Shown here in pieces: positions 4,709 through 33,737 of a DNA stretch of 64,000 nt (the stretch's first letter is position 1; the number at the start of each line of letters is the position of its first letter). Where the stretch lies: NCBI GenBank assembly GCA_965178125.1, contig OZ237758.1:186001-250000 (forward strand), in the 5' to 3' direction. Made by a program: the position numbers and the translations under genes. The notes under the pieces are model-generated. The model ran no database searches. It was not told the origin of the DNA and saw nothing but the letters and a program-made list of their open reading frames with translations. Source of the stretch: Bilabrum cf. latius (lineage: Eukaryota).

Positions 4709-5451
4709 TTACTGCTTGGAAGCAGCGATGGCGCGGGCAAGGTCGTCGTCCTTCTTCTTGGCCCGCTTCTCGCGGCGGCGCTGGGCCTTGGCCTTGGCAA
4801 GCTCGGCCTGGTCAGCGAGGGCCTTGGCGCGGCGGCGCTCATCCTTCTCGTGGTGGATCACCTCCATGAGCTGCTTCTTGCTCTTGTGCTTGTTGCCCTT
4901 GATCTGCATGTAGAGCGCCTGGTACAGGTGCTTGTCAATCTTGCGCTGCTCCCTGTAGCGCTTCAGCATGCGACGCAGCACGCGAAGACGGCGCATCCAG
5001 ATAACCTTAGTAGGCAAGCGAGCCTCGCGGGTACCCTTGCGCTTACCGGGACCGGAGTGGCGACCCAGCTTCTTGGCCTCGGCGCGCTTGTTCACGCGAG
5101 CCCGGGAGTGGATCACGGTCGGCTTCTTCAGGATGAAGCGGTCCTTGATCATCCTCCGGATGTTCTGGCGCGAATGAGCCATGGAGATCTCCTGGATCTC
5201 ACTGGGGTCCAGGTAGACTGCGAAAGCGAAGAGAAAGGTCCGGCCGGATGCCAGTTGCTGTCGAAAGCTCGAGTTTCGGCGTCAGCACCGGCGGCTGCCG
5301 GTGCTACTGCTGCATATCTCGCAGAGAATATGCAGTACAACATAACTAATGCACCTGCTGACATGGTGCGCAATATGCTTGACTTACCCTTGCGCTTGCC
5401 GCACTTCAGCACGGACGCCGCCAGGCGCTTCTGGACGCGAAGGTTTGTCAT
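4709..5451 (-). CDS. RPL19: 60S ribosomal protein eL19, 190 aa, 2 exons (5451-5388, 5217-4709)
   Basis: [21 protein letters not shown] joins [22 protein letters not shown]...[16 protein letters not shown] across a GTAAGT...TCGCAG intron at 5218-5387. Ends in TAA. Confidence 0.97.
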
Positions 5452-5876
5452 GATCCCACCCTGCGAAATCCAGAGGTGCAGGTTAATAACATTTGCGCAG
5501 TATGATCATTACCAAGGCAGTGAGCTTTGCCAAATCACGCATGCGGCCCAGGCACGAGTCTGGAGCAACGAGGTGCAGCAACTGTTGGGTGCTACAGCAT
5601 ATGTACGAGATTCACTGCAGTTTTGCAGTACACAGTGCATTTATTTAGTGACCATATTAACAGGTTCCGAAAGAACAGCAACCTGGATAGACTCCAGCGG
5701 CCTCACCAGTCAATTCAATGGTCTCGGCACCCTGGTGGTTTGGCAGTCGATCCGATCCCGAATAGCACCCAACAATCATTAAAATCCGAATCCAGGTGAA
5801 ACCGATCCGGGCTACATCCTCTTCGCAAGAAGTACTCGTTATAACAAAGATTCGGTAATCAACAGATGGTAGTATA

Positions 5877-8800
5877 ATGAGTCAAACTTCTTCCGAAAGA
5901 CAGCGAGAAAGCAGAAGGAATGTGTCTGACGCGGGGCAGAATGGGTCTCCGGCGGTGACGAGTGCTCTTAAACATGCAACAGGGCCGCGATAGGGGCCTC
6001 TGCAGGTGTCTACCTCAGAGCAGCCTATCAGAGATATGGATTTTGCCCAGACACTGGCTGTGCTGCATCGTATTGCGAGCGAGGGAATAAAAAATAGCGC
6101 TGCAGTGAGGTAGCTGCTTCACCAGGTGATCAGGCTCGCAAAAACAGCTATTAAGGACGGGGAGCCCCAAGATCATGGTGTCGCGCTTGAGGTTTTGTGC
6201 CCTTACTCTGTAGTGCGCGATAGCATGCTGCGGTCGACCTGTTTTCGGGCGCTGCGGTACGTAGTTCACACTCCGGACGCGGCAAGGGCATTCTGCGGGA
6301 CTAGACTTGTGCTTCCAGTGGCGCGCTCGCTGGATCGTGACCACCAGTATCTTTTAGAACGCACAGAGGCCCTAAAGCTAGCTAGGGCAGTGATTCAGCT
6401 AGCCCCGTCCTTCGCCCCTCGAGCACTGGTGCGAAGCATCGTTGTACTGGCTGCCACGCCTGGCGAGCTTTTTCGGATGGCGTGTATTGACACGCTGCTG
6501 CTATGGATAGTTGATGCGCGTACAATGCGCACGGTAGTCTCTTGCAAGGGAATTGACGCGCTGGCAGCCGCGGTGGTGGACCCCGAGTGTGCGAGCAAGT
6601 CGGTTCGCATCGCGCTCACCCTCGTGCTCGCTTCAGACAGCAGGGCCACCCGCAGGCTCGTGGAGCCCTCTCGATGGATCCGAAAGATCGTGGCCGTGTT
6701 CTCTTTGTTTGCTCGTGAGACTGGACGTGGTTCCGGCCGCGTACCACCCCGGACCTGACGATACCTCCACTCTGCTCTGCCCAGTACATCTCCCCAACGC
6801 TCGTGTTGCATGCCTCATCCATCACCCGCGCAGTACAACCCGACCGGAAGCCCACCACGTCAGACCGCCGCCGCTGGGCCCTGGCCCGACAGGCCCTTGT
6901 TACCATCGGCCGCACGTGGCCGGGTCTGCTGCTTCTGTGCGGGTGCCAGGACGGCCTCCCCTTCCTGGCGGCACTGCTGTTCAGGGCAAAGGACCTGGCC
7001 CCCGACTGCGCGCTGGCGGTGATGCGACTTTTGGCAGAGCTCATGGCGCTGCCTGCCTTCCACTGGGCGCACCCCCTCGCCCAGGCCAGGGCACTGGCAG
7101 GGGCGAGGGCCAGGGAGAGGGCAGTGGCCAGGGTCCAGGACCACCAGGCGCTCAGGGCGCACTTGGCCGCAGAGAGAGGCGGCAGGGGCGGCGTAGGGGC
7201 TGGATCCGGGGGGCCGGCCAGCAGCCAGGACGTGTCTGCCAGCCTCTCGGCCAGCTTCGGGGTGGGGGGTGGGTCGGCTGCTGGGCTGGGGCCGGGGCTG
7301 GCGCCTGCTCGGAGCCAGAGGAACGCGAGCGTGGACAGCGAGTCGGCGTCGGAGGCAGGAGACGGAAGGGGTAGCAGTGGTGCCCAGGACGGACCCAGGG
7401 AACACAGGAGGGGGGCAGGGGAGGGCTGGCTTGGAGCACTGCCGGGAGCAGCCCATGGCACCCGTTGGATGCCTGGCCCCCCTGGGCCGATGCCGACCGC
7501 ACCGGCGCGATATGCTTCCCCCCAGCCCTCCGTAGACTCGGCGTCATATTTGGGCCTGCAGCCAGAAATGACGGCGGCGTACTGGGTGAGCGTGGCAGCA
7601 AGAGGCGCCACCGGACCCACCACGCACGGTCAGGCTCTGCGCGCGAGCGCATCGGCGGCGCACCGCCTGCAGAGGCTCGTACAGCGGGCCGCGGGTGGGG
7701 ATGGCGCTGCGCAAGAGGCCGTGCGGAACCGTGGACTTGGGGGTGCCCCCACCTCCCGACAGACCTGGAGGCATGCGGCAGCATACCGGGCGGCTCAGCA
7801 GCACTAGCATCAGCACCAGTAGCATCAGCACGAGCAATCTGATCAGCGGGGCGGCCCTCACCAGGAGCACGAAGGAGGGGAAGGGGGGCAGGGAACAGAC
7901 GGTGCTGGCACTGGAGAGGAGCAGGCTGTGCCCAGGCGGGACTCGGCTGACGGCGCCGGAGCAGCCTGGCGAGCCACCAGGGGGCGTGTGGACAGGGGCT
8001 GGGCGGATGGGTAGGGGGCCGGGTCTGAGCTCTGTGGCGACGACCTCGTGCTGCACTACCGTGCCGTCCTCCTGCAGGCGCTTCTGGGCTGCCGGCTGGT
8101 CCCTGCCCTGTGCCTCGCAGCCACCTCGCAGGACGCACTGGTCGGTCTCGCGGCCGCCTCTTTGCTCAGGGCTGTCGCCACCCAGGCGTTCGGGGTGCTG
8201 CCAGAGGCGCTCGCCGCCAAAGCGCTGGCGGCCCCGGATCTCCTGCAACTGGCGGCACTGGCTAGGACGGGCGAGGCACCCCCGGGACCCCCCGATGCCA
8301 CCGGATTCTTTGGGAAACGGATGACCGGGGCGTCTGCATCGCGGGGAGGGAACAGGGGCGGTGTGCCCCCTGCCCCGTCAGCAGGCACCGATGCCCCAGA
8401 CGATGCTACTCGAGGGCACTCCGGTGCCCTATGGGGCTCTGACCCAGGGAACAACGGTGGGGCCACCCGCCGCAGGAGGGAGCGCGCCGAGAACCGCCTG
8501 ATGCGGGCGAGGAGGGCGGCGTGGATGGAGGCCGAGTCGCCCGTGTCGGTGCAGAGGAGACTCGCCTTCATTCGCAGCGTCATGGGCACGCAGGCAATTG
8601 CGCTAGGCGTGCCCAGGCCTGTCAGGGCGGGGGCACCGGAGGGTGGGGCCTGGGCGGGCGGGGGCTGGTGGGACCAGCCGAGGCCGGTACGAAGGGGGTG
8701 GTCCGCGCGCGGGAGTGGGGCCAGCGGTGCGGGTGCATCGCACGGTGGTGACGCCCCCGGCTTTGCCGCTCCTGCCCCCGAGGACCTTGGCATGCGGACG

Positions 8801-11800
8801 GCACGTCTGGCGGCGCTCTGGGGCTGGGGCCTGCCGGTGCCGGTGGAGCCTGCCAGCCCGTGGGAGAGCGCGATCGAGCCGTACAGGGGGTCGGCGCTGC
8901 TACGGCAGGGTGCAGCGCATGGCGGTGCCGACGAGCACGCCCGCCGCTCCGGGTGGAGCGCGGCCCCTCGGCTGCCCATGTCCACCACGCTGCTGATGGT
9001 GCGTTCCCTCCAGCGGCAGGGGCAAGGGGTCCCCCAGCAGCTGGGTGCAGTCGGGCCGGGCGCGGCTGCCACTGCGACCCTCAAGTTCGCTGACGTCACT
9101 GTAGACCCGCTGCACCCCTTCGTGTCGGGGGGAGGCCTCTCGTTGTTCCCCAAGAGGGCAGAGACGTGGGACGTGGACGTGGTGCCGATGCTGGACGGGA
9201 CCCGGCAGGCAGGGCGTGGGGAACACAAGGTTGGGGAGGAAGCAGCGCCGGGAGCGGGGCTTGCACTGGCGCTGGGGCCCTCCCCGGAGGCACCCGCCAT
9301 CGCAACCCGTCCTGCCATCGCCGGTGTCGTGGGGCAGCAGCGCAAGCACGTGCTCGGTGGCGGTCCTGGCGCACTCGTCACGCGCATGGTGCCGCCCGCG
9401 ACCCCCCGGCACGGCCATGCGGGCATGGACTCGTTCGATGAGATGCACCTGCCTGGATTCGGTGCAGAAATGGGACAGGAAACAGCTGTCTCGGCCGGGG
9501 GCGACCCTGCCTCGGTAGTATTGGGCGGAAGCAGTGGCAGCAGCAGTGGCGTGCAAGGGGGCGCCGGTGCGGGGGCAGATTCGGGGCGCGGCGGCGGCAT
9601 GCTTCGCATCGCGGTTCCAGGCGACGGCAGCAGCCGGGGAGGGGACAGCGAGACCGGGCTCATGCTCTCGCCCGCAGCCGGAGCTCCAGCCATGCCTTCC
9701 AGCTACAGGGACAGCTCCATCCGTCGAGGTTCCGTCGTGATCCCACCTCGCTCCGCGCGGCGCCCCTCCATCCGTCAGAGCCTGGCAGGTCGCAGCGATC
9801 AGGCCGGCATGTTTGCCGGCTGGGGCCCGCGAGGAAGCGGGGCTCCCAGCGAGTCGGGACTGATGGACTCCGCGCACGGCTCACAGGTGGGCACCCCGCC
9901 CTCCTTCCAGGTCGGCGCCGCGCATTTGCAGCGCAGCGGAACCATCTACCACGACCCCTCCGGTGGGTCCTACGGGGAGGACACGCCTAGCGGGCTGGGC
10001 CCTTCCCCTGGAGACGTGAAGATCTCCTCCGAGGTGGCTCGCGCGATGGCACTTGCCCTAGCCGAGGGCGGTGAGGGACCAGAGACCCGGGCAGGGACTG
10101 GCTTCGGGTGGGACGGGACGGACAGGGAACAACGAGCTGCGGGTGGCGTTGATGACCAGGGGGAGGACGTGTGGGCGACCCCTCGAGTGGGCGCTGTGCC
10201 GGCTGGCGAGAAGCTGACCGCTGCAGGAGAGCACGGGCATGATGAAGGTGATGGTACGCTGGGCTCCATGCGAGAGGGGAGTGAGCATGAGAGCGAGGAC
10301 GGGGGATTGGGGAGCCCATTCATGCTTCCAGAGGGCGCGCACAGGGGCGATGAGGAGGATAAGGAGGGTGCCTGGATGCAGGAGGGCCCCAGCACGGGCA
10401 GCACAGCCTTTCACCAGGCCATGGTGTGGCGGGTGCCCTCTGATACGGAGCACCTCACAAGGGGATACTCGCACCAGTACCAGGGGGATACTTGGCAGCA
10501 GACGCATGGAGAGGATATGGTGCAGCTGCAGGGGCTTGCGGCGCGCCGGCGTATCAAGGTCGCCCGGCTGCCCACGCTGGGGTACCACAGCTCTCGATCT
10601 GACGGGCGGGAGGCTTCAATCCGTCACGAGCTCGTGGAGCAGGCAATGGCGCGACTCGTGGATCAGCGGTGGGAGGAGGGAGCGGGCACGCTGGGCGCCT
10701 CTGGTGGGGGCGTGTCTGTGGCAGGGAACTATCTGCACGGTTTCTTTGAGGGCGGCGGGGCGTGGCTCAGGCAGGCACGGGAGGCTGACGAGCAGGCTGC
10801 CGCTGGGGAGCTGGCCGGGGCGGGCGCGTACAACCGCAGCGAATCATTGCACAGCGGTTACGAGGAGGAGGAGGATGAGTACTATGATGATGCGGGCGAG
10901 ATGAAGGATGGGGGGGACGAGAGCAACTGGCAGGCTGCTTCGAGGGTGGCGGGGGGCAGCGAGGGCAGTGCCTATGCAGGAGACCGGGAATGGCGCGCGC
11001 AGATCGAGCCCATGGCGCTGCCCGGTCTGGCCGGGATCTTCAGCGGGAGCAGTGGGTCCGGGAGGGGCGGTCTCAGGGTGGGTCACCATGGGCCCACTGA
11101 GGAGGAAGCCGGGCTGGCGCACGTTCTGTCCATAGGTGAGAGCGGTCCCACGGGGTTCATGGGCACGGGCATGCTGCTGCGGCGAGAGATCGCGCAGGCC
11201 GCCACGCGTGCTTCTGACCTTCTCATGGCCCTTGATGCGCACCTCGAGGCGCTCATGGACTCGGCCCAGGCCGCGTCCCAGGCTCTCCTCGCCTCTGTCG
11301 TGGACCAGGCCGTGGCCGAGGCAGGTGACGCTGCGGGGTCAGCGGAGGGCATGGCGGGTGGTGATGGGCCCAGCGCGGAGCACCTGGCCGCCTCCGCTGC
11401 GGCGGGTGTCACTGCCGGCACGAAGAGGCGGGGCGGCAGCGGAACAAGGGCAGAGGGCGGAGTGTCCGGCGGGTCCGAGAGAGCCGGCTCGGGCGGACCT
11501 GGCGGGAGTGCGGCACCGGCCTCCATGGCGGGTCACCTCCCCGCAGGCGGTGACGTGGAGCGACAGGCCGATGCGGAATCGGAGCTGCTGGCGACGGACC
11601 GGGCGCGGCTCGTGTCTGCGTATGCCGGGAGGTAGCTGAACGATGCTTTTGCAGCCGACGGGGAGAGGCAGGCCGCTCTCAAGAGGCAGGGCGCCTCTGC
11701 AGATGCGATCGGGCAGGCGCCGCCGGAGGGGCTTCAAGTGGCGGCCAGGACGGCGGCCGAGCGCAGCAGGCTAGGGGCCGCCCGGCTCTCCCTTCGGCAG

Positions 11801-14800
11801 CGGCTGCGGGACGCGTCGACCGGTGGGATTTTTGGCGCCGAGTCGGCCGCGTGGGGCGTGCAGGAGGCCTGGTCCCCTGGGGTGCCCACCAGCGCCCACG
11901 GCCTGTCGGCAGCCGTGTACCTGTCCGTGGGCTGGCAGAGCGTGGGGCACGCCCCTTCGGATCACGCGGTGTACTCGATGGTGCGTGCGTGGGTGGAGGC
12001 GGATGAGGACCGTAGAGACGCGATGGATGCGCACGGCAGCGAGTGGGCGGGCTCCGGGCACGGCCGGCAGGCCAGCTCCGGCGATCCTGTCATATGTGCG
12101 ATCGAGGAGGAGAGCAAACGGGAGGCGGGCGATGAAGACCCCGCGATGCAGGCGTTCGAGGACGATGCCGGGGTGGAGGGCGGTGCCTGGGCGGAGTTTG
12201 AGGTGGAGGACGATGACACGAGCGTTGACAGCGAGGAGCTGCTGGACATGGACGTGCAGGAGGCAGCGGACCTGGTACTGCGGAGGGCGGGCGAGGGGGA
12301 CGGCATGGGAGGGGCCGCTGACCACGAGCACGAGAACGTCGTTGGGATCCAGCGTGAGTCAAGCAACGCCAGTCGGTGGTCGGATAGGGAGCGGGAGGAT
12401 GGGAGCAGCCGTGGGTCTGAGAGTGGCGGCTTGGGGCGGGCGGGCGGTGAGACCTCGTCCACAGGGCTCATATCCCCGAGGGGACCCACCGCCAGCCAGG
12501 ACGGCAGCTCCAAAGGGGGCCAGCTGCCACACGCGGGCACAGCCTCTGTGCGGACGGACCGGCTGCCTTCATCTGCCACGGTCGGCGGGACTCCCCGCCT
12601 GGAGGGGAGCAAGGGAAGGGAGAGCGGGGGCAGGCTGCAGTCTCGCGCCACGGACGCAGAGCTGGGCCCTTCCTCCGGGTCGCTGCAGGCCAGCTTCCAG
12701 CTGGACGCGAGGCATCTGTCCAGGGGCAGCCAGCTGGAGGACGAGGACGAGGGAGAAAGAGGACAAGACGAAGAAGGAGGGAAGCACCGCGCCGGCGGAG
12801 CTGACGCGGTGGGTAGGACTGAGGACGGCTCCAACGGGCGCATGGGGGACGATGAGGTAGAGGACGTGCTACGGGGCCTGCCTGCGGGACTTGCACAGAT
12901 ACCTGACGGCAGGCGACGCTCGCTATCTGCGGATCCCTCCCAGCTCAAGCCCGCTGGCGCGAGACAGGCGGGTGCAGTAGGAGCGGTTGGAAGCGGCATG
13001 CCGGGTAGCAGGCTAAGCCAGGGAACAGCCTCCGGTTTACCGCTCGCGTCACCACCGAGACCCTCATCGCACGGCTCGGGTGCTCGCACGCCAACCGGAT
13101 TCAAGACCCCGCCGGGGAGCGAGGCTTCCCCTGCTGCATCCTCAGCGCAGGGCAGCCCCGGCAGAGGCGGGGGCGGCGACGGAGACGCCACCCCACGCAC
13201 CCCGATTGCGATGCGGAGCACCCCCAGGCGAAGAAGGAGCTCCTCACTGGACGCGTTCGGGGCCTCTGGGGCGGCCCACGTGGCGCTGCGGGCCGCTGCC
13301 GCCGCGACCGCCCGCGCCACCATGAAGCGAGAGGCTGGCGAAGCTGCAACCGCGGGCGAGGGCAAGGAGCAGTTGCAACAGCAGGAGCGCAGCTCTCCAG
13401 ACATGAAGAATTCCGCCGGGCCCCCGCGGCCGCTTCCCAGCATACCACCTCTCGTGATCGAATCGATCCGATCGCAGGACGAGGAGAGCTCTCCAGGCCG
13501 ACGTGGTTCAGAGCCCGTGAAGCGGCGCACCTCGCTGCTGACTGGAGAGGGTGACGACGAGGAAGATGAAATCGAGCGTGACAATGGTAGCAGACAGCTG
13601 GGCGTTTCTCCTCGGAGCTCCCCACATGGTGGCGGGGGTACTCCTGGGGGAGCAGAGGGGTCAGGCTCCGCCCAATCTGGCAGCGCTTCGGTTGGTGCGG
13701 GTGCCAGCGGCAGCATGCCCGCCAGCCGTGGGACCCAGGGAACAGGGCAGAGGCCACGGTGGAACGACGCGCAGCTGGCGGCGCGAGCGAAACTGCGCCG
13801 TTGTTCCCTTGTTGTGGCAGCCGCTGTGCTTGAGGTGCTCAGCGTGCGCGCGCAGGCTCAGGGCAGCGGGACTGACGGCCGCGAGCTGACAGCCATGGCG
13901 CTGTGGAGGGCGGGCGTGGGGCCTCTGGTGCAGTCGGCCGCGCAGCTGAACGGCGATGCCGCTCTGTTCGCTGCCTGTCTCACGCCCGAAGCCCGCAGGG
14001 GCGTGCTAGAGGCGGCTCTGAGCCTGCCTTTCTTGCCCGGTGATTTCTAGCAAGGAGCCAGTCGCGCGCCAAGAGGGGCTAAGGCTGCAACGGCCGGGCT
14101 TGGCCAGCACGCAGCACCGGGTGCCCCTGAATTCTTCTTTGAGCAGGCTCTCGAGGGCGAGTCGTCCGCAGCGGCAGCGGCTGCCAGTACCCAAGGCGGC
14201 TCCGAGGGCGGCACCGGCGACGGATCTCGGCCTGCGGCACCCACCGATGTGGCACTCGCGGCGTGGATGGACGGCTTGCACAGGCGCGCGATCACCGAGG
14301 AGGGCGGCATGGCCGACTTTCTGGCCGAGTCGGATGACGAGTGGGCGCTGCTGCTGGGCTCGGGGCAGGGCCATGGGCAGGAAGGCTAGCGCGGAGGGAA
14401 CCGGATCCTTAGCCTGGAGGAGACCGTGCTGCGGGACGCTTCAGCCCTGGCCTCCGGCTGCCTGACCCGGGCCCAGAGCAGACACATCGAGTCGCTGCCC
14501 AGCCCCGCCCTGCGAGTGGCCCTGCGGCGGGTGCTGGAGAGAAGGAAGGCCTCGGGGAAGGCGTTCCTCGCGGCGGGGTCCATGCAGCGGATCCGGTGGT
14601 CGCAGGCTGTGCTGGGAGGACTGCCCGCCAGCACGTACTCCTCGGAGGCGCTGGTGGACGTGGTGGCGGCCGGTAGGAAGCTGGTGTCGCTCTCCCAGAC
14701 GGTCGGGCTGCACGCCAGAGAGATGCTCGCGGAGCAGACCGTGCGGCTGTTCACCGGGGCTGCGCATGGTGCGGGCAACGGCAAGGGGCGCGGAAATCGT

Positions 14801-17800
14801 CAGGGCAAGGGTCCGCATGCCGCCATCCTGGAGCAGCTGTTCCGGAGCGGGGAGGCAGCGGGAGGGCTGGCCGGCGCTCTGCATGGGCCAGATGCACCCG
14901 CGCATGGGTTGGATCTAGCCCTCGTTTCTGCGGCTGCCAGCCGGGCGCTGTCACCTCTCAACGAGATCGGAGAGCCCGCCGTGCTGCCCTTTGTGCTGGC
15001 ATACTCGGCTGCGTTCGCTGCCGGGCGGTGTGGGGCCCCGTCCATACCCTTGCTGCCGAGGCACCCTGCCTCCGTGTTCTTCCCGTCACTGGGCCCCAGC
15101 GATCTCGGGAACGCCGGTGCGCAGTCCGCCGAGCTCCTGGCCAAGCTGAGGCGGGCGGACCTTGCCATCCCAAGGCCCGCCCGCGTGGGAGCGATCGCGA
15201 GGAGGATCCCGGGTGACGTGCGGTGGGTGCCGGGGCAGAGGGAGGAGGAGGTATCTGCCATCCGAACCGATGCAGTGGGTATGCCAGGGGGTGCGGCGGG
15301 CGGCGGGCTGGTCCCGGCCGGTATGGCCATGGACGACGAGGAGGGCCTGGTGCAGCACGGGGGTGATGCCGCTCTCATGGCCCACCTAGAGGCGGCGCAC
15401 GGCCGGCGGGGCAAGCCGCAGGCGATGTCGGTGATCGAGCGGTGGTCCATCGGGGAGCAGGAGGACGAGGATGACGAAGAGGACGAGCTGCTGCGGGGCA
15501 TGGCCCGGGCGGGCGCGGGCTTTAGGGGCAGAGGGGCCTCTCGGCAGCGGCCGGTGGCGGCTGCTGCTGCTAGGGTGCTACGCAGGGGCGACGCCGCGAT
15601 GCTGGAGGGAGACGCGGTGGCTGTGGGCGGGGCGAGGGAGGCTCCCGTGGGCCCCGGGGGCAGCCTGGTGAGACTGTCGCTGTGGAGGGCAGGAGATTCG
15701 CTGCGCGTGTGGCCGCAGGTTCAGGTGGAGCCGGGTGAGGACGTGAATGGCGCCGGAGATGGCACACTGCTGCTGCTGGACGGCGGTGCCATCGCGGCAG
15801 CGAGTGCTGTGGTGGGCTCTGCCGAGGGCATCGGACTGCACAGCGGGGGAGGGGCAGTGGCGGCATCGGCGTGTGCTCCCGCGGGCGCAGGGGCCGGCGG
15901 TGCGGGAGACGCCTGGCTGGTGGCACACCTGACCATTGCTGACGTGGCGCCTTCTAGGGTCCGCAGCGGTTTCGCTGCCGCCGCCCTTCGCCCCTGGCTG
16001 CTGTCGGGGCGGCAGGCCAGGCGGCTGGAGGCCCAGAAAAACGCAGAGAAGGAAGCGGCTGCCGCGGCCCGCAGCGTGGAGGGCAGCGCCAGTGGGGACG
16101 GGGACGGGGACTCTGCATCTGGCTCGGGCCCACGCGCCAGACGAGCATCGGACGCAAGCGCGGCTCGCGCGGGGGTGACGTCCAAGGCCAGGGCACTGCT
16201 GGGGGCAGGTGTCGCGACTGGTCCCGCGGCTCTGCAGTAGAGCGGGGCCTCGGCTGCAGGGTCTCAGGGCTCCGGTGACAAGGCCAGCGGGGCCGGGACC
16301 GCTGTGCATGCCGCTGTGCAGCGGGCGCGGTGGCAGGGCGTAGAGGTGCGAGCCACCACCAAGCAGCTCGCCGCCCTGCTGGTGGCGCTGGCGGCAAGTG
16401 GACGGGCGGGACATGCATTGCCGCGCGTTGGATTTGGGAGAGCAGAAGGCTCTGCTGCTGCTACTGAATCGTCCGTGTAGCCCGACTTCCTGATCCAGAT
16501 GCACGACGTGCTGGCAGGGGGCATCGCAGCGGCGCGAGACCTCGTCCAGGCAGCGGCGGGCGCGCAGATCGACGACGTGAACCTGGACAGGCAGGGCGAC
16601 CCTCTCAGGGTGGACGTGGAGGTGCAGCGGGCGCTTCAGGCGGCAGGGGACCACGTCAAGCGGCTGCTGGGGCTCAAGTCCATGACGCACGCGAGCGGTC
16701 GCATGGCGGATGCCTCCAGCAGCCACGCTGTGGTGCGCTTCGGCTTCGCCGTGCCGCCTCCTCAGCTGCGCGTCACTCCCCTCGTGCTGACCGCCTTCCC
16801 CATGCCACGTGTCGCAGCAGCCGGGCTGGCCGCTGGCGGGCTGCTTGGCACCGGCCTAGACGCCTTGGGGAGCTCTGCCGAGGTGCTTCACACCAGCAAC
16901 ATGGCCACGCTGCTCGGGTGGGTGTCGGGGTCTGCGGGGGGCTCTGCCGCGGGCTCCCTCCTGGCCTCGCCCCCCACGGGAAAAGCTGCCACGGTGGCCC
17001 CCGGGCACCACAGCATCGGCATGCTGACGGGACCCGCTGGGTTCGGCGGAGGTCACTCGGGAGGGGGGGCCGCGGGGGGTGGCCTGCCCGGGTCGCCTGC
17101 CGCGGGCGCTGCCACCGGCGGGACGGGCGGCTCCGGGTCCGGCTTGTTCGGTACGCAGGGCAGGGGCCGGCGGCTGGGGCGGCTGGTGCGGCACTGTCTG
17201 CGGCAGGTGGAGGAACAGGCCAGGGTGGAGCACATGGCGCAGGCCGCGCCCAGCCGTGGGCGGTCCGTGCTGCAGTTCCTCGGGGCCTCCTCCAGCGACA
17301 CAGGGTCCCGGGCCCGTGTGGGCCGCGCGTCCATCTCTGCCCTGCCTCGGTCCATGGGCTCCACCGCGGGGCAGTCACACGCCTCGTGTGAGGGAGGCGA
17401 CGCGCCCGGGCGGGAGGCAGCGGCTGCCGCCGCGCAGGCCGCCAAGAAGCGCGCCCTCGCCGTGGTGTTGGAGTCTCGTGTGACGAGTGACCCCGACTGG
17501 CGGGCGTGGGACTGGCACCTGGTCGCCCTGCTGCTGGACACGATGCTGCCCTCGCCGGCCGTGCTGGAGGCCGTGCTGGGCGAGACGGTGTTCATGCAGC
17601 GGCTCGGGCGGGCCTTTCTGCTCGGAGAGGCGGGGCTGGAGCTGCCCTCCGAGTCGCAGTGGGAAGGGTACAGCAAGCAGCTGTTCGAGGAGCAAACGAG
17701 CAGCGGGCTGTTCGGCCTGTTCTCTGGCAGGCAGCGGTCGGCCTCCACCGCCGCTGGGGCCCTTCAGCGGCCCTCCTCGGTTGCGACCATGGCGGCCGGA

Positions 17801-20800
17801 GGCAGGCCGGTGGTGCGGGCCACCTCTGACTCGGCGCCTTCAGGGGAGGACAAGGGCGCCGCGCAGATCTCGAGGGTGCCCTGGACGGCGGCTTCCCTGC
17901 GATTCGCCAGATGCGCGAGGCAGTGGCTGGTGCTGCTGCTGCACCACCCCATGGGTCGGCGCGCCCTGCTGGACACGGATGCAGGGGCCAAGGCGGCCGC
18001 ATCCGCGAGCGAGACGAGGCCCGGGGACGTCCTGCGAGAGCTCGTCCTGGCTTTGCTGCGGCAGTCGCTGCCGGGCGGTGGCACCAACCCGTGGCACGTG
18101 TTCGCAGGCGAGGACTCGATGAAGGAGCTGGCGGCGAACCATGCAGCGGCCGCGTGCCCCTCGGGTCCCCCCACGGCGAGCAAGGTGGAGTACGCTTCCA
18201 GTGCCTTGATCCGGTGGCGGTTCGAGCGGTGCGTCGCGCGAGAGATCGTGACTGCCATGCTGGGCGCGATGACTGCCTCGGAGCAGGGGCGGGCCGTGCT
18301 GCTGGAGCTGGGCAGGGACGACTGGGGCCGCAACGCGAGGGTCGGTCCGGGCAAGTCATCCTCCACTCTGGCACTGCGGAGGAGCACAGCGATGAGTGGG
18401 AGGGCGGGGGGTGCGACCCCCAGTGATTTGGGGTCGTCCCCGAGGGACGGCAAGGCAAGGCGGGGTTCGGTCCTGTCGGACGAGCGGAAGCAATCGAAGG
18501 CGGGCCAGGGCAAGGACGAGCGGTCACCTTCGTCGGCTTCGTCTTAGCCATCGCAAGGAGGGGCGCAGGCGGAAGGCGCAGGGATGGGTGCCCGGGCACG
18601 TGGCAGCACCGGGGCGGGAAAGACCCCGTCGACTTCCCGTGCCCGCCGAGCCAGCTCGCGCCGCGGCCGCGCCTCTCTCACCTTCGGCCGGAAGGAGCCG
18701 GACGCTGTAAAGGCGCTAGCTACGGCGCTGCTGCAGCTTGGGGAGGCGTCTTCACAGAGAGGCGCCGCTGGGGGCGCGCGAAGCAGCCTGCCCTCGGGTA
18801 CCCCCCTGGCGCGCAGGCCCACGAGCAGCTCGCCCAGCGGTTTCGGCCGCGCCGCTTCCCCCGCGCCTGTTTTCTCCTTTGGGGGACAGGCAGGCACGGA
18901 CACAGGCGCGGCAGCGGCAGTGGCAGCGTCAGCGTCAGCGTCAGCGTCAGGTCCCGCCCTGGGCTCTGCCGAGGCGCAGCCCAGGGCCACGCTGCTGCCC
19001 GGTAGTGTGGCGCGTGCGCCCCCCGGCAGCATCTTGCTGGGCGTGCAGGCCGTGTTTGGCCACTGGGCCACCCCCGCCCTGGCCGCCTCCATGGCCTACT
19101 GCCTCAAGCAGCCCGACGAGTCGCACCCGATCGGGGGCATGGTCCGGATGGGCCTCAGCGCGCAGCGGGACTACCTGTCGAGAGTGGTGGTGGGCGCGCT
19201 GAACCCGGGGGCATGCCAGCACTCTCGTTCCCTAGTGGCCACGTGGCTGGTCATGGGCAGCCGGCAGCTGAGGTCCCACGTGCTGCTCTGGATGCGAGTG
19301 TGGCTGCGCCGAGGCATGCCGCTGTACCAGCAGTGGGGGCTCCCTCTCCTCGTGGCGGTGGCCATGGCAGAGACCAGGGAACAAGGAGGGGACATGCAGC
19401 TGGCGGTGCAGGCGCTCTCGATCCTCACAGAGGCAGCAACCCTCAGCCCTGCCTACCGGCGCACCATCGTGGCGCTGGGTATCAGGCTCGCGCTGTTCCC
19501 TGCGCAGGCATGGGTCCCTCTTGCCATGGCCCTCGCGGCGGGTTGGGACGGAGAAGATGGGGGGGAGGGCGTGGCGATGCTGGCCGAGCAGGGCTTGCTG
19601 GCACCGCTGCTAGGGCAATGGAGGCTCCTTCGGCAGGTGGAGTGGGTGGCGCACTGCGACGCGTTGGCTGCAGATAGCCTGTCCGCCGGTGGTGTCGGCC
19701 TGCAGGGGCTGGAGGATCCCGCAGGTGCAACGGCCAGCGAGTCGGGCGGTGCCTCTGCCGTGCTGGAGTCACTGCGGGAGGCAGCTCGCATGCAGATGGC
19801 GGGCGTGAAGAGCGGGCTGGGCGGGCCAGGCGTGGGGCTGCAGGTGGCGGGTGGGTCCGTGGGCCCCGCCAGTACTGCGAGTGCTGGTGCTGGTGCCGGT
19901 GGCCCGGGCTCGGGCTCTGGCTCGGAAGCCGGGCGCGGGGGACCGGGGTCGGCTGTTGACCCAGGCACCCCCACGGCGGGGGCGCAACGGGGTGCCCCTA
20001 CTGGCGCTGCGTGGTTCCGTGGGCGGGATAAGGCAGGGCGGCGAGGCACTGCCACGACCGCGGAGAGCGGGCCGGGGAGAGCTGTTGAGGAGGAGGAGGA
20101 CGAGGAAGGACAGCACCCCCTCGGGGGTCCCGGCAGGGGGGTGTTCCGAGCTTGGACGCAGATCCAGGGGTTGGGTGCTCCCGCGGAGCCCGAGCCCGTG
20201 CCCGTGCCCATTTGGGCTCCGAGTCCGCAGTCCGCGGGCGGGATGGCGGGACAGACAGGAGATGGGCCCACCGGTGCATCGGCCTGGGGGGAGGGCTGGT
20301 CCCTGGAGGGGCTGGCCAGGCTGCCGTGGCGCGTGGAGGTCTGGGCCGAGTGGCCGCTGGAGACCGCCGTGGGTGGTGGTAACAGTGGTGAGGGAGGAGG
20401 GGGTGGCAGCGGCTCGACTGCTGGGGCCACTCCTGGTTTCTCCCGCGCCGTGCTCACGATGGACGCTCAGCTGGACGCGGGGCAGTACCACCCCGAGGTG
20501 GTGGATGTCCCCCTGGTGGGGTCAGGGGAGGAGGGCCAGGGGATCTCGCGCGCGGGGGGCATCCGATCGGGCCGATCCTCCCGCGCATCCTCCGTGGCCC
20601 TGCCCCCGGGGAACAGCAACAACAACAGGGGCAGGGGCAGCAGGGACAAGGTGCGGCGAGGGTCGGGGACATCCGTCGCGAGTGGGGCTCCTCACGGGGC
20701 TGGACCTGGACCACAGGGCGGGTCTGCTGCTAGCGGTGGCGCCGGCGGCACATCAGCTTCTTCGTCTCCATCCTCGCGCTTCGCTAGGGACCCGCGCGTG

Positions 20801-23773
20801 CCGCCGACGGGCGCCTGTGCCTCTGCCCGCAGCACGCCCCGCGGCTCCCTCCGGGTGGTGGCCCGGTGCATCAACAGCGCGGGGCAGCCCCAGCCCGTCG
20901 AGCTGCCGGCCACTGCGGTGGTGAAGGCGGCTCTCATCGTGGGCTCGCACGTTGTTGATTTAGGCTCCGGATCCGTGCCGTTTGGGGCCAGGCGCCCCAG
21001 CGCTCGGTCGCACGAGGCACTGGCGGCAGCGAGCAGCTCCCTTCCTGGCGTTGTAAACGAGGAGAAAACCGACGGGGCCGGGAGCCCGGGGCGGGGACTG
21101 GCGACGGGCTCGGGCTCTGGAGTCCCTGCCGCGCTGGCCGGGTCCGTCCGGGGCGCCCGTGCGGCAGCAGCATCGGCCGGGCAGCCATACCCGCAGTCTG
21201 CCCTGGGGGCGGGCTTCTACGAGGTGGAGCCAAGCCGCAGCCTCAACGATGCGGTGGACACGCAGCACTCCCGCGTGCAGGCCACGGGGGACCGGGCCAC
21301 GTACCAGGCCAGGGCAGGCGTCAGCGCTATGCTGCCTCCCCCCAGGTTTCGGTCGGCGCTGGAGTGGAGCAAGGACGCGGGCCTCCTGCGAATCGACCCC
21401 AGCACCTCTGTGAGCGCGGCAGCATCGTCCTCGTCGGGGGAGTGGGGCGCCCCGGGGGCCCCCAGCGGCACGGGCCGGGGAGGGGTGTCGCCCACTTCCG
21501 GGGGGGGGCAGGGGGGGGTCCCGAGGGCCTCCGTGGGTCCGTCCGCCGCTGCTGTTCCCCAGGCCCGCTCCACGGACCCCAAGCCGGTGGCAGGGGCGGG
21601 CGGCACGGCCTCTGAGGCGCGGGGCAGTGGCGTGCTGCACACGGTGGCAGAGACCGTCACCGCCAAGCTGAGGCCCTCCGAGGCGCACGCATAGCTCAAC
21701 AAGCTCGAGGCGAGGACCGCGAGCTGGTGCGCCGCCGGTGTGATGAGTGTGCTGGACCGGGCCGTGAGGGTATCCAAGAGGAAGGGGGCGGCGGGGCACT
21801 CGTCACACCGCCGGGCGGCCTCATCTCTGTCTCGGCCCTCCCTCGCTGCGGCGCTGCGGGCCCCAGTGGCTTCGCCTCGAGCCATCGATTCCCCGGTCGG
21901 GGATGTGGCGCGGTTCCGGTTTGACGGCGCGGCACGCTGGGGCGATATCCCGCCTTCGGCTGCTGCAGGGAACAACAAGGGCGGGGCTGACAGCGCCAGC
22001 GCGGACGGGGCTGGCAGCGCGCACAGCGGGCAGCTGGGGACAGGCGCCGGGCAGCGGGGCGGGGCCGCCTCTTTCAGGGGCGAAGCCGCCCTTGTCCGGC
22101 AGCAAGCACTCAGGTGCGCGCACACCATCCTGGATGCCGTCCCTGAGCTGCCGGGGCCCGCCTGCCCCGTGCCCGTGCCCGAGCCCGAGCCGACTCCGCG
22201 CGCCGTCCGCATGGCCGGCGGGCTAGGGGCGGAGGGGGCGCGGCTGCCCGGCTGCAAGCTCGTCTTCACGGAGTCCATGCTGGTTCCCGGCGCCGCGCAA
22301 TTGCACTCCGTCGAGTTCCGCATCCGCCCCCTCCCCGAGCGCCGCACCCGCCGCCCTGCCCCGCCACACCTGGTGGGCGCCCTCAGCAGGACCAAGCTCG
22401 GGAGGAGGCTGCTCCTGCGCTCGGGGCTGGTGCACGACGCGGCTCTGGCGGCGATGGACGGGCAGCTGAGCGACCTCCGCAGGCGGGCTGCGGTGTGGAC
22501 GCTGGGGCACTGCGGGAGCTGTCCCGCGGGGCTGGCGCTGCTGCTGAAGCACGTCAGTCCGGACATCGTGGTGCGGATGGACTACCTCGCGAGAGACAGC
22601 TCCAGCCTGGCGCTCAGGTGCACTGCACTGCAGGCCATGTCGCTCATGGCGCGGTCGGGCCGCGGGCGGGCCATGCTGCAGGGGCTCGGGTGGGTCACCT
22701 GCGACAGGGACGGGGCCTCGGCGGGGCTGGCGCCCGGGGTGCCGGGGCAGGCATTCCGGCCGCATATCCCCGTGCAAGCCGCCCTCTTCCCCACGGAAGT
22801 GCGCGGCGCCGGCGGAACCTCCGGGGGCGCCTCCTCGGCAGCCCGGGACAGCTCCCGCACCGGGGTACCCCTGTGCCCCGACCTTCCCGCTGGGTCCTCC
22901 GTGGCCGTTGTTCCCTCGGCCGCCTCGCAGCTGTTCACGCTGCCTGCGCGGAAGCAGGGGCAGGGCACTGCAGCGCTGGGGCAGGACGTACCACAGGTCC
23001 GGGTCGTGGAAGAGGAGGACGAGAAGAGGGGGGACGACAAGGGGTAGTCATCTGGGCAGTAGGGTAGTGGCAAGGGCTAGGGCAGGGGCAAGGGCCCGGA
23101 AGCAGCGGCCGAGGATACGGACGGCATCGGGTGCGCCCTCAGGGGCGTGCCCCGCATGTCGGGGCCCCCGGTGCACCACCGTGCAGTGCGGGCCAGCAAG
23201 TCGCTGCTCAGAGGCGTTGCCGCTGCCGGTGTGACGAGTGCGGACGGCAGTCCCGTGGCGGAGCTGGACGACGTTTTGGACGTGCGGGACGGTTTCTCCC
23301 ACCAGCGCCTGCCGCCCGTGAAGCCACGGTGGGAGCCAGTGCTGCGGGCCATCTCCGGCCTGCCGGTGCCGTTCATGGCGCGCAAGTGCAGGCGTGTGCT
23401 GGCGCGGGCGGCTCGCGGGGAGGAGGGGCGACGCCTGTTTCAAGAGGCTGGCCTGTACTGGCACGCGCACCACATCTTGGCCGAGAGTGGGTGCGGGCTG
23501 GCGGAACGGAGGGTGGTGCATTCCCTGTTCGATAACGTGCTGTTCCATGCCAAGGATTGGGAGGAGGAGCTGGGGACTGGGGAGCTGGAACAGGCGGGTG
23601 GGGTGAGGGGGCAGGCGAGATCGGGTGATGGGTCGAACGCGTCTCCGGCGGGGAGCGCAAGCGCGGCGAGCGAGCACGGGATCGGGGAGGACAGGCAAGT
23701 GCTCCTGCGGCGCATCGAGGACATGTGCGAGGAAGTCTAGAGGGCCAAAGGTGCTTCAAATGGGACCACTTGA
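5877..23773 (+). CDS. RICTOR: Giant Rictor (TORC2 subunit), about 5,925 aa, 2 exons (5877-6714, 6834-23773), 16 in-frame TAG
   Basis: Rictor-like blocks appear in the expected order: ERTEALKLAR...PRALVRSIV...FRMACIDTL (N-term); GRTWPGLL; HYRAVLLQAL; WDWHLV; WGLPLLV; HLVGALSRTKLGRRLL; AVWTLGHCGS...LRCTALQAMSLMARSGRGRAML..LGW (domain V); LYWHAHHIL...RRVVHSLF (C-term). All pieces after the predicted intron 6715-6833 (GTGAGA...CGCAG) share one frame, broken only by TAG. Ends in TGA at 23771. Confidence 0.88.
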
Positions 23774-26358: not shown

Positions 26359-26427
26359 GCGTGATTGAGCAAGACAGAGGAATGACTGACGAGCCATACA
26401 GCTTGTCCTAGCACTCGTCACACTTTA

Positions 26428-27935: not shown

Positions 27936-28091
27936 CCTACCCACCCCGCTGTAGAAACTCAACGAGGGTTCCCTACGTTTTATTCCTATTCCTTCCGATT
28001 GCGTGCTAAATCCAGTTGATGGAGCCTAATGTGCCGTGTTCCGGTGTGGATCCTCTAGTGCAACTGCTGCACGCATCGTCAGACTCACCCA

Positions 28092-29324: not shown

Positions 29325-29507
29325 CCAGCAACCGCACCATCTTGCTGCTGTCCAGGCGCGTGAAGTCCAAGTGGCGCGAATCTCCAGTGCTCAATTTCGC
29401 GGCTTTTAAATGCGCCAACACTGAATACTGGTAGCTGCGTCGGCTCTCGCAAACACCCCGCCGGGACAAGACCACCTCGCTTAGCCGTCATCCATCGCTT
29501 CCTATCC

Positions 29508-31067
29508 TTGGCCCACCCGTGATGCGGAGCCCCTAGTGCCATCACTGCTCCGCGAGATATTGGCCCACCCGTGATACGGAGCCCCTAGTGCCTTCACTGC
29601 TCCGCGAGATATTGGCCCACCCGTGATACGGAGCCCCTAGTGCCTTCACTGCTCCGCGAGATATTGGCCCACCCGTGATGCGGAGTCCCTAGTGCCTTCA
29701 CTGCTCCGCGAGATATTGGCCCACCCGTGATGCGGAGTCCCTAGTGCCTTCACTGCTCCGCGAGATATTGGCCCACCCGTGATACGGAGTCCCTAGTGCC
29801 TTCACTGCTCCGCGAGATATTGGCCCACCCGTGATACGGAGCCCCTAGTGCTTTCACTGCTCCGCGAGATATTGGCCCACCCGTGATGCGGAGTCCCTAG
29901 TGCCTTCACTGCTCCGCGAGATATTGGCCCACCCGTGATACGGAGCCCCTAGTGCTTTCACTGCTCCGCGAGATATTGGCCCACCGGTGATACGGAGTCC
30001 CTAGTGCCTTCACTGCTCCGCGAGATATTGGCCCACCCGTGATACGGAGTCCCTAGTGCCTTCACTGCTCCGCGAGATATTGGCCCACCCGTGATACGGA
30101 GTCCCTAGTGCCTTCACTGCTCCGCGAGATATTGGCCCACCCGTGATACGGAGTCCCTAGTGCTTTCACTGCTCCGCGAGATATTGGCCCACCCGTGATA
30201 CGGAGTCCCTAGTGCTTTCACTGCTCCGCGAGATATTGGCCCACCCGTGATACGGAGCCCCTAGTGCCTTCACTGCTCCGCGAGATATTGGCCCACCCGT
30301 GATACGGAGTCCCTAGTGCCTTCACTGCTCCGCGAGATATTGGCCCACCCGTGATACGGAGTCCCTAGTGCCTTCACTGCTCCGCGAGATATTGGCCCAC
30401 CCGTGATGCGGAGTCCCTAGTGCCTTCACTGCTCCGCGAGATATTGGCCCACCCGTGATGCGGAGCCCCTAGTGCCTTCACTGCTCCGCGAGATATTGGC
30501 CCACCCGTGATACGGAGCCCCTAGTGCCTTCACTGCTCCGCGAGATATTGGCCCACCCGTGATACGGAGCCCCTAGTGCCTTCACTGCTCCGCGAGATAT
30601 TGGCCCACCCGTGATGCGGAGTCCCTAGTGCTTTCACTGCTCCGCGAGATATTGGCCCACCCGTGATACGGAGTCCCTAGTGCCTTCACTGCTCCGCGAG
30701 ATATTGGCCCACCCGTGATACGGAGCCCCTAGTGCCTTCACTGCTCCGCGAGATATTGGCCCACCCGTGATACGGAGTCCCTAGTGCCTTCACTGCTCCG
30801 CGAGATATTGGCCCACCCGTGATACGGAGTCCCTAGTGCCTTCACTGCTCCGCGAGATATTGGCCCACCCGTGATGCGGAGTCCCTAGTGCCTTCACTGC
30901 TCCGCGAGATATTGGCCCACCCGTGATACGGAGTCCCTAGTGCCTTCACTGCTCCGCGAGATATTGGCCCACCCGTGATACGGAGTCCCTAGTGCTTTCA
31001 CTGCTCCGCGAGATATTGGCCCACCCGTGATACGGAGTCCCTAGTGCCTTCACTGCTCCGCGAGATA
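29508..31067. repeat. Minisatellite: 30 tandem copies of a 52-bp unit TTGGCCCACCCGTGAT(A/G)CGGAG(T/C)CCCTAGTGC(C/T)TTCACTGCTCCGCGAGATA
   Basis: 1560 bp = 30 x 52, head-to-tail with no spacers. Variation is almost confined to three biallelic positions. Confidence 0.97.
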
Positions 31068-32230
31068 AAACCATTTGTATTGCTGCTAGCACCATTCGCA
31101 GAGATCGCCTCCTGGCCGGCTTCATCTTCGTACCCGTCGCTTGCAGAAGCATCGTCGCTTGGGCCCGACCCCGACCCTAATCCTGATCCTGATCCTGATC
31201 CTGATCCTGATCCAGTCTGTACGATCCCACCCGAGGCAGGGGCAGGGGCAGGGGCAGGGGCAGGGGCAGCCTCACCGTCCTCACCGTCCATTCCCTGAGC
31301 TCCAGTACCTGCTGCTAGCTGCAACGATGCACCTCCCGCCACGTGCCCCGCTCCGATTTCCCCAGCTCCCTCGCCCCTACTGCTATTGCAACTGCTACTG
31401 GCCCCGCCGGCTGGAGCGCCGGCTGGAGCGCCGTGCAAGGGCGCGAGGAGATCATCGTACCGCGGGAAGGTGCGGTCTCCTCTAGGCAGGTGGGAGGGCC
31501 AGTCGGGCCCGCACCAGCACAGGTAGTACGCTTCCTGCTGCAGGATCGGCTCGAATCGGCGGGCCAATACTGCCAGTTGCTGCATGCGGCTGTGGCTCTG
31601 TGGATGCAGGGGGCCGAGGTCCGGCACCGCCTCGGTGCAGACCGACTGCAGCTGGCGCACTCGGCTCAGCACAGGGTCGGCCTGCACGTGCTCCCACCGT
31701 CGACGAACCAGTTCATCCAGCGAGTTTGGTGCATTTGCCTGGTCAGCCTCTACATTGCTGCTGCCGCTTGTTGTCGCAGTCGATGGCGAGTCGTCGGGCG
31801 GGGATGGTCCCCGTGGACGGCTGCTGCCAGAGCTGACACGCCTTCGTTTGGAGGCGCGCTCCCTACCACTTCCTGCCAGTGACGAACCGAGCGGTGAGCT
31901 TGCATCTTCTTGTGCAAGCTCGGGGAAAATCTCGCAAACGTCCGGAGCCTCCACGGCCTGCCCGCACTGGTCTGCCAGTCTAGCGAGCAAATGCAAATTG
32001 TAGTGCAGTGCCTGGGAGGTAGCTCGTATAGCTGCCTCATGCGTGGTCCTGGTACCCATACAACTGGGAAGCTGGGCAGCAATATTCAGAAGCTCCAGTT
32101 GCTGCAACAGGCTCGCATTTTCCTTCAAAATTTCGTCTACGTCTGCATGACTCAGGATTGGGGTCCCTCCTAAGGCTGCTGGAAGGGCACATATATGCTT
32201 TCCGCAGCTTGGCAAGTCAACACTCGCCAT
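30998..32230 (-). CDS. Protein with an SSXT/SS18 N-terminal (SNH)-like domain, 410 aa; 3' end runs into the tandem array
   Basis: VDEILKENASLLQQL...SQALHYNLHLLARLADQ resembles the SS18/GIF motif (MLDEN..LI...QQ.LH.NL.YLA.IAD). The remainder is low complexity. Confidence 0.6.
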   Translation of the reverse strand: MASVDLPSCGKHICALPAALGGTPILSHADVDEILKENASLLQQLELLNIAAQLPSCMGTRTTHEAAIRATSQALHYNLHLLARLADQCGQAVEAPDVCEIFPELAQEDASSPLGSSLAGSGRERASKRRRVSSGSSRPRGPSPPDDSPSTATTSGSSNVEADQANAPNSLDELVRRRWEHVQADPVLSRVRQLQSVCTEAVPDLGPLHPQSHSRMQQLAVLARRFEPILQQEAYYLCWCGPDWPSHLPRGDRTFPRYDDLLAPLHGAPAGAPAGGASSSCNSSRGEGAGEIGAGHVAGGASLQLAAGTGAQGMDGEDGEAAPAPAPAPAPASGGIVQTGSGSGSGSGSGLGSGSGPSDDASASDGYEDEAGQEAISANGASSNTNGFISRSSEGTRDSVSRVGQYLAEQ

Positions 32231-32855
32231 GATTGATTGTTGGCAGACAATTTTGCTCCTAAACTAGAATTCGCTTTAGTGACGTGTAGTTTGACACCGA
32301 GAACTGCATTCTCATCGGTCGGTGGGGGTGGTCGTTCACGAAGAAGCGGCTGACAAGCGAGCTTCTATCGGTTCTTCTTCGGCTGGATGGTCGAATTCGC
32401 TATCGTAGGGGTAGCTGGCACAGTATCGTTCGCTCACGTATCCCGAATAGGCCAGCTGCTCGCATCGACACTGCCGCAGTGCTCAATCGCTTTGCTACCT
32501 GTCCATCCGTCTCGTTGGGACAGAGAAGCCGAGAGGATCGCAGCAGAGACTAAGTGAGACTATTTTGTTTGCAATCAATCCTTTTTGGTAGGCTGTCGCC
32601 GACAGTGCTTGCCAATCACGCAGCGAATGTTTCTGGTTTCCGTTCAGACCATTTGATGTCACTACCACCCTACTTATATCCTTCGCCCACCGGTCGTGCA
32701 GGACCCCAGTATCTGAGTTAAAGCCCCCGGTCGTCTACATTCCAGGCGGTCGCTTGATCGGAGGGGAGTGGGAGTTCCTAGAGCTAGCAGCAACTAGGTA
32801 CGGCGTTCGCTGCGACTTGGACCCCCACGAATTAAGGGCACACGCAAGAAAGCAC

Positions 32856-33737
32856 ATGGCAGAAGCAAGTAGAGTAGAAAGCTAGCGAGCTCTCGCCGCG
32901 GATTTGATGTCAAGGCGAGGGAAGAAAGCTCTAATCATTGTTGACGTACAGAACGACTTCTGCGATGGTGGTGCCCTCGCAGTCCCTGGTGGTAGCGAGG
33001 TGGTGCCTGTGGTAAATACTCTTAGGCATGCTGTAGGATGGGATTTAGTCGTGTTAACGTAGGACTTCCATCCTCCGGATCACGTTTCGTTTGCTAGCAA
33101 TAACGACGGAGCGAAGCTCTTTGAGACACGAACCCTGCCTTCTGTGGGCGAGCAAGTCATGTGGCCGAACCACTGCGTGCAAGGTACCGACGGCTGCAAG
33201 TTTCACCCTGATTTGGAGCGCGCGGGCAGCGACGTCATCGTGCAGAAGGGAAAGGTGCGCGAGGTGGATTCCTACAGCGGCTTTGGAGACGCCTCAGAGG
33301 GGCACGAGAAGGAGAAGACCGAGCTTGAGCACGTGCTTCGAGAGAAGGGAGTGACCGACGTGTTTGTGGCGGGCCTGGCTGCGGATTTTTGCGTCGCGTT
33401 TACCGCGAAGGACGCGGCCAAGGCGGGGTTCCGGACGTACCTGGTGCGGGATGGCACGCGGGGCATCACGGAGGACGGCACCGAGAAGGAGTGGTCTGAG
33501 GCGAAGGGGCTCGGCGTGCAGCTGATCGATAGCTCGGAGGTGCCGTCCACCGCTGTGGATGCGCTGGTAAAGGCCGAGGTGGGCGGTGAAGGGCTGGGGG
33601 AAGGGGTGGAAGTTGGGGAAACAGAATCTGCAGCAGCTACCGGTGGAGCGGCGAGCAAATCGGGTGCCAGCATGGAGGAAGGGAAGGAGGCAGCTAATAG
33701 TGGTTCTGGCGAGGCTTCAAAGGAGGAATCAACGTAA
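32856..33737 (+). CDS. PNC1: Nicotinamidase/pyrazinamidase (isochorismatase family), 293 aa
   Basis: ALIIVDVQNDFCDGGALAV, VVLT[TAG 33060]DFHPPDHVSFAS, WPNHCVQGT, QKG...DSYSGF, GLAADFCVAFTAKDA. There is a further TAG at 32883, with an alternative ATG at 32907. Ends in TAA. Confidence 0.93.

Follow-up and report, generated by a model that had tools for sequence, protein, structure and literature searches.

We found that TAG is a sense codon in the genes of a 64 kb window of DNA (64,000 nucleotides; positions 186,001 to 250,000 of contig OZ237758.1, from the assembly GCA_965178125.1 deposited for Bilabrum cf. latius). We think it likely that UAG is read as glutamine throughout the nuclear genes of this organism, and that its genes are terminated by UGA (approximately nine genes in ten) or by UAA (approximately one in ten). 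This would be a reassignment of UAG only, of the type found in Iotanema and listed as NCBI table 15. The reading is probably right because a related contig from a metagenome, L001, adds two things to the window: a TAA at the homologous end of the gene for eL19, and a lack of TAA inside genes. The window is eukaryotic nuclear DNA of 58-72% G+C, with approximately 19 genes and with both strands in use. Third codon positions of the genome (GC3) are 75-90% G+C. Positions given below are those of the window, unless they are attributed to L001.

TAG is frequent inside the genes and TAA is not found there. The open reading frame (ORF) models that we used consisted of 20 ORF segments with 18,212 in-frame codons. 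These contained 60 TAG and neither TAA nor TGA. In the two off frames of these segments we counted 95 and 112 TAG, 31 and 38 TAA, and 251 and 276 TGA. A preliminary description of this DNA had put the number of in-frame TAG at about 55. We counted 60 over all ORF models, and only 26-35 of them are in stretches where codon usage gives a clear signal; around the rest, the frames are of low complexity or weakly biased. When TAG was read through, the longest open frames grew from 1,905 codons to 5,684 and 2,791 codons. Reading through TAA made almost no difference. The frame of 2,791 codons encodes PRP8 and runs uninterrupted from 46618 to 54993 on the plus strand, where it ends with TGA. It contains no TAA, and it matches solved PRP8 structures in the PDB over its full length (E = 0). 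Four in-frame TAG are present in it (at 46759, 48562, 49081, and 52228).

We obtained L001 by scanning metagenome contigs with the eL19 exon. It is 5,409 bp long with 58% GC, comes from a related species, and is syntenic with positions 3171-7140 of the window. Three genes are shared. The first is an alpha/beta-hydrolase gene (2703..4352, plus strand; Pfam Abhydrolase_6), whose protein is 62.5% identical between the two over 518 residues. The second is the eL19 gene (4709..5451, minus strand; Pfam Ribosomal_L19e_C, E = 7.7e-33), which is 89% identical in DNA. The third is a giant RICTOR-like gene (5877..23773, plus strand; Pfam RICTOR_N, E = 1.3e-23), which ends with TGA and contains 16 in-frame TAG and 0 TAA in the window. 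Its N-terminal 840 residues align with L001, and its start is 53-67% identical. In-frame TAG is also found in L001, with 6 in the hydrolase frame and 5 in the RICTOR segments, and the comparison indicates that L001 uses the same code as the window.

Glutamine is the residue to which the comparison of the two species points. We made codon alignments of three orthologous segments from the window and L001 and found 14 columns with TAG in one species. The partner codon was a glutamine codon in 7 of the 14 (CAG in five and CAA in two). The other partners were AAG (twice) and AAC, GGC, GGG, CTG, and GCG (once each). A further TAG/CAG pair, at 7194, was left out because the frame alignment is no longer homologous there. 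In the hydrolase gene, the TAG of the window (4104-4106) is opposite a CAG of L001, and three TAG of L001 are opposite CAG in the window. Some of the pairs are in well conserved context, e.g., LF-TAG-SHSPDD opposite MY-CAG-SHSPDD. With a glutamine codon as partner in half of the TAG columns, these alignments indicate that TAG means glutamine.

The window contains 18 complete gene ends, of which 16 are TGA, two are TAA, and none is TAG. The preliminary description had the same number of TAA ends and one TGA too many (17). We located both of the TAA codons that it had reported. One is the last codon of the eL19 frame (4709-4711, minus strand). The other is the last codon of a nicotinamidase/isochorismatase frame (32295..33737, plus strand, with the TAA at 33735-33737; Pfam Isochorismatase, E = 1.5e-26, residues 212-414 of 480). 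The hydrolase genes of the window and L001 both have TGA as their stop, and their last residues align. A histidine-phosphatase gene (26428-28125, minus strand) has a tandem stop, TGA followed directly by an in-frame TAA (26425-26430), which is a weak hint that TAA can terminate. The first 10 codons downstream of the 16 TGA stops contain three in-frame TAA, this tandem one included, compared to none and one in the other frames, which is suggestive and too few to count.

The eL19 end is the most important line of evidence for TAA as a stop. The gene has two exons (5451-5388 and 5217-4709, minus strand) and an intron with the donor GTAAGT, with splice sites read from the sequence. The homologous stop in L001 is also TAA (3187-3189). 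The window gene ends with AAG CAG TAA (SKQ-TAA) and the L001 gene with AAG ACC CAG TAA (SKTQ-TAA). Over the 120 nt that precede the TAA, nucleotide identity between the two is 0.82; beyond the TAA it falls to 0.59, close to the 0.56 of shuffled sequence. Readthrough of the TAA would add eight more residues before a TGA, and the tails (QMGYIGQV in the window, QAACSLQLG in L001) are unrelated. P0123, the predicted eL19 of a third strain (99% identical to that of the window; from other public assemblies), stops at the same residue. As judged from these sequences, UAA appears to act as a terminator at a conserved C-terminus in one gene of two species.

The eL19 and hydrolase genes are convergent, and the spacer that separates them (4353-4708; 3190-3585 in L001) is unalignable except for two short motifs. 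Common to both species are GTTAGGTT directly downstream of the eL19 stop and CCAYTGGATCGACAA approximately 180 nt further on, each after a pyrimidine-AG string. Neither motif keeps its reading frame from one species to the other. Because the shared motifs are out of frame, we take the spacer to be non-coding and to hold no conserved downstream exon. The motifs may be 3'-end processing signals or a small RNA.

We found that TAA is missing from the inside of genes to an extent beyond codon bias. The preliminary description had reported no internal in-frame TAA, and this was borne out by the ORF models. Since such models could be circular, we also listed every TAA in ORFs of at least 100 codons bounded by TGA only. 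There were 141, and none had coding signal on both sides in the frame of a gene. They fell in antisense shadow frames, in 5' leaders (of the RICTOR-like, EF-hand, G8, and G17 genes; e.g., an in-frame TAA at 44564-44566, minus strand, in the EF-hand leader), in the intron of the eS19 gene (34684-34686, minus strand, within TACTAAATTGCAG; intron read from the sequence), and at the two gene ends described above. The codon-usage test of the flanks is valid for strongly biased genes only, since the PRP8 shadow frames, too, receive a coding score.

The number of TAA to be expected, if TAA were a sense codon, depends on how often CAA is used. The absence of TAA had been set against a regular use of CAA, and this argument was overrated because the CAA:CAG ratio of the window is only 0.08-0.19: all ORF models together give 0.19, and stretches with a clear coding signal give 0.08-0.12, with CAA making up 7-16% of CAR codons (CAA plus CAG). 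From the CAA/CAG ratio, 2.0-4.2 TAA would be expected in the window, and from the pooled NAA/NAG ratio, 2.6-4.9. L001 carries more weight, as its GC bias is smaller and CAA is common in it. Its 1,368 codons include 11 TAG, 31 CAG, 14 CAA, and 0 TAA, with 5.0 (CAA/CAG ratio) or 2.8 (pooled ratio) TAA expected. For the window and L001 combined (19,580 codons), approximately 5-10 TAA are expected and none is found (P roughly 0.008 to 0.0001).

Several observations weigh against the reading of TAG as glutamine and TAA as a stop. The TAG columns of PRP8 give no information on glutamine, and the conserved ones have other residues in 120 homologs: one column is histidine in 120/120 and one is proline in 95/98. 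A further column is variable. The PRP8 of the window is off consensus at 130 of 1,143 columns that are near-invariant among these homologs, including another change from histidine to glutamine. Because this protein departs so widely from the consensus and has a long branch, histidine and proline at the TAG columns are less odd. On the side of TAA, the window has only two TAA ends, and both follow poorly conserved tails, a caveat in the preliminary description that holds. Both TAA also have a G before them and a purine after them, and the resulting strings (GTAAAT for eL19, or GTAAGC in L001, and GTAAGG for the nicotinamidase) resemble real donors of this genome. The nicotinamidase TAA sits in the donor-like string ACGTAAGG after a low-complexity tail, with the next in-frame TGA 20 codons on. 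The nicotinamidase gene may have a further, unseen last exon. The extra length of the eL19 C-terminus among 119 homologs ranges from -15 to +85 residues (median +15) and cannot decide the matter. Lastly, the absence of TAA from the window is weak evidence by itself because CAA is scarce and few TAA are expected: the probability of finding none is 0.008-0.14, barely beyond chance. The decoupling of UAG from UAA that the preliminary description had proposed is thus statistically weak in the window alone, and is strengthened by the conservation of the eL19 TAA in L001 and by the lack of TAA in a contig where CAA is common.

The donor-like strings suggest one alternative. UAA might be neither sense nor a working terminator, both TAA ends being the start of a 3' intron (G|GTAAR) that leads to a true UGA stop in an unseen last exon. 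GTAAAT, GTAAGC, and GTAAGG are close to the confirmed donors GTAAGT, GTGAGC, and GTGAGA, and acceptor-like pyrimidine-AG sites are found approximately 180 nt past the eL19 TAA in both species. However, any codon ending in G that is followed by TAA and a purine makes a donor-like string by itself. The peptides read from those acceptors are unrelated between the species, with the shared motif in different frames. A scan of codon usage found no plus-strand coding segment at 33600-34096 and no minus-strand coding segment in the spacer after the eL19 end. For eL19, the comparison of the window with L001 argues against a further exon. We consider a 3' intron at both ends very improbable.

A second alternative is that UAA and UAG both mean glutamine, as in NCBI table 6. 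UAA would be too rare to be seen at high GC3, all genes would end with UGA, and the eL19 and nicotinamidase proteins would have tails of 8 and 20 residues. Coordinated reassignment of both codons is seen more often and has arisen independently at least 13 times (PMC5304391). Few TAA would be expected at the CAA:CAG ratio of the window, UGA codons are indeed found 8 and 20 codons after the two TAA, and eL19 homologs are often longer. These points have to be set against L001, in which CAA is well represented (14, compared to 31 CAG and 11 TAG) and TAA is absent, giving the low joint probability stated above. In addition, this alternative needs a very rare codon at the homologous eL19 site of two species, exactly where conservation ends. 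The supposed tails are unrelated, and the motifs that the two spacers share do not keep frame. The defining mark of table 6, an in-frame UAA where glutamine is encoded, was found nowhere in the 18,212 codons of the window and the 1,368 of L001. We regard this alternative as very improbable.

The least credible alternative is that UAG is ambiguous, i.e., sense inside genes and a terminator close to the ends of mRNAs, with some genes shorter than modelled. Such context-dependent codes are documented (Condylostoma, karyorelicts, Amoebophrya, and others), and in the RICTOR-like gene a TAG is found 10 codons ahead of the TGA. However, none of the 18 gene ends (a small sample) needs TAG, and a TAG in L001 four codons before the TGA stop is opposite a CAG in the window, with the residues beyond it conserved.

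If UAG alone has become a glutamine codon, the likely machinery would be a tRNA-Gln with the anticodon CUA, which would pair with UAG and not with UAA, as the code itself and the discussion in PMC5304391 suggest. This anticodon would be one mutation away from CUG, the anticodon of the isoacceptor for CAG, which is the dominant glutamine codon. The release factor eRF1 would have lost recognition of UAG and would still read UAA and UGA. At a GC3 of 75-90%, CAA and the UUG tRNA may matter so little that nothing would push UAA to follow UAG. With CAA rare, a derivative of tRNA-Gln(UUG) with the anticodon UUA would have little opportunity or use, which would explain why UAA did not follow. The preliminary description had proposed such an eRF1 and a CUA tRNA only, which is reasonable and matches the discussion by Panek et al. 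2017 (PMC5304391). No eRF1 gene is present in the window or in L001. There is no tRNA gene in the window, in L001, or in three other metagenome loci (L002-L004), and no Rfam match in the window.

The preliminary description had stated that UAA and UAG are reassigned together in most eukaryotic variant codes. This background is out of date in that UAG-only codes have been published for several nuclear lineages (PMC5304391, PMC11687900). The closest match is Iotanema spirale (Fornicata), in which UAG means glutamine, UAA is the primary stop, UGA is also a stop, and eRF1 carries T32G in the GTS motif (PMC5304391). The codon table is the same as that proposed here, with UAG as glutamine and UAA kept as a terminator. 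In contrast, the use of stops is opposite: UGA ends 16 of 18 genes in the window and UAA only two, and Iotanema uses mainly UAA. A further difference is that the genome of the window is 58-72% GC and carries genes such as that for an oxygen-dependent PhyH dioxygenase. In phyllopharyngean ciliates and Protocruzia tuzeti, UAG alone has been reassigned to glutamine or leucine, with several independent origins, and UAA makes up 87-98% of stops and UGA is rare (PMC11687900). Like these ciliates, the window has UAG as sense and, on our reading, UAA as a stop; unlike them, it uses mostly UGA and little UAA.

UAG and UAA are also decoupled in the nuclear genomes of the rhizarian exLh, in which UAG is leucine (PMC5304391), and of the green alga Scotinosphaera, in which UAG is serine (cited in PMC11687900). 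Unlike in these two, TAG in our alignments is opposite CAG or CAA in 7 of 14 columns, opposite CTG once, and never opposite a serine codon. Codes in which both codons mean glutamine (many ciliates, hexamitin diplomonads, some Ulvophyceae, and Amoeboaphelidium protococcarum) have UAG as glutamine in common with the window, and differ from it in that UAA is glutamine as well. Genes are also terminated by the reassigned codon in context-dependent codes (Condylostoma, karyorelicts, Blastocrithidia, and Amoebophrya ex K. veneficum), compared to 0 of 18 ends with TAG here. We found no GC-rich lineage and no stramenopile lineage with a UAG-only code in the literature that we searched.

The PRP8 of the organism is 82-85% identical to all of the top matches and about equally distant from all named eukaryotes. 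In a FastTree phylogeny of PRP8 that included no metamonads, it has a branch of 0.39 beside an unnamed sequence and next to stramenopiles, a position that is not reliable, and it groups with no named sequence. The best eL19 matches are 66-69% identical, one of them labelled Symbiodinium. The metagenome loci L002-L004 are from ordinary GC-rich eukaryotes, with eL19 60-66% identical, and are not informative. A scan of genome contigs for eS19 gave an archaeal homolog only, and a scan of viral contigs for PRP8 gave no match. Two candidates from the literature were rejected: Amoebophrya ex K. veneficum, whose third codon positions are reported to be A/U-biased, and Amoeboaphelidium protococcarum, reported to read both TAG and TAA as glutamine (PMC6299283). 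The PRP8 gene seems to be free of introns. Its protein has an N-terminal extension of approximately 330 residues rich in glycine, proline, and methionine, and an insert of approximately 150 residues (query 649-799) without counterpart in the solved structures.

Based on these results we suggest, tentatively and with slightly more doubt than confidence, that the window and L001 belong to a GC-rich clade of protists (at least two species and a further strain, on a long branch by the stramenopiles in the PRP8 tree) in which UAG alone changed to glutamine and genes end almost always with UGA. This would be an independent origin in a lineage and a regime of base composition without a reported case, and GC pressure alone, by leaving CAA, UAA, and their tRNA with a marginal role, could then uncouple UAG from UAA.

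Part of the window (28000-37900) is also found in public sequencing runs. It shares 0.96, 0.83, 0.77, and 0.38 of its sampled words with runs labelled as four different organisms, and small shares with runs from algae, protists, and marine metagenomes. The organism may therefore be carried along with other cultures as a companion, a contaminant, or a parasite, which is no more than a lead.

Exon 2 of the eS19 gene (34108..34725, minus strand; Pfam Ribosomal_S19e, E = 1.4e-41) ends with TGA, as does a gene for an EF-hand protein (43967..44563, minus strand; Pfam EF-hand_7, E = 1e-13) with one in-frame TAG. Other recognized genes encode the PhyH dioxygenase, a PH-domain protein, a family-3 glycosidase, a second hydrolase, and an exportin-T-like protein. 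The eL19, eS19, and RICTOR-like genes have introns, with the donors GTAAGT, GTGAGC, and GTGAGA; that of the RICTOR-like gene, near 6717-6833 on the plus strand, was read from the sequence. The RICTOR-like frame of approximately 5,900 codons has RICTOR_N at its start, consists mostly of low-complexity sequence rich in alanine, glycine, and serine, and seems to be of unusual length for a RICTOR homolog. A tandem array at 29508-31067, with 30 head-to-tail copies of a 52-bp unit (97% matches), fills the space from the PhyH gene to its neighbor.

Nuclear codes in which UAG and UAA differ in meaning are few, and they are test cases for discrimination by eRF1 and for whether one reassignment forces the other. 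Standard gene callers cut the proteins of this organism at every TAG. Because they stop there, and because PRP8 of the window was not found near full length in a search of 5.8 billion proteins, the lineage is probably fragmented in public protein sets. The eRF1 of the organism would be of interest for engineering UAG-specific readthrough. The published UAG-only cases considered here end their genes mainly at UAA, and a GC-rich organism that uses mainly UGA would widen the known conditions under which UAG and UAA can be split.

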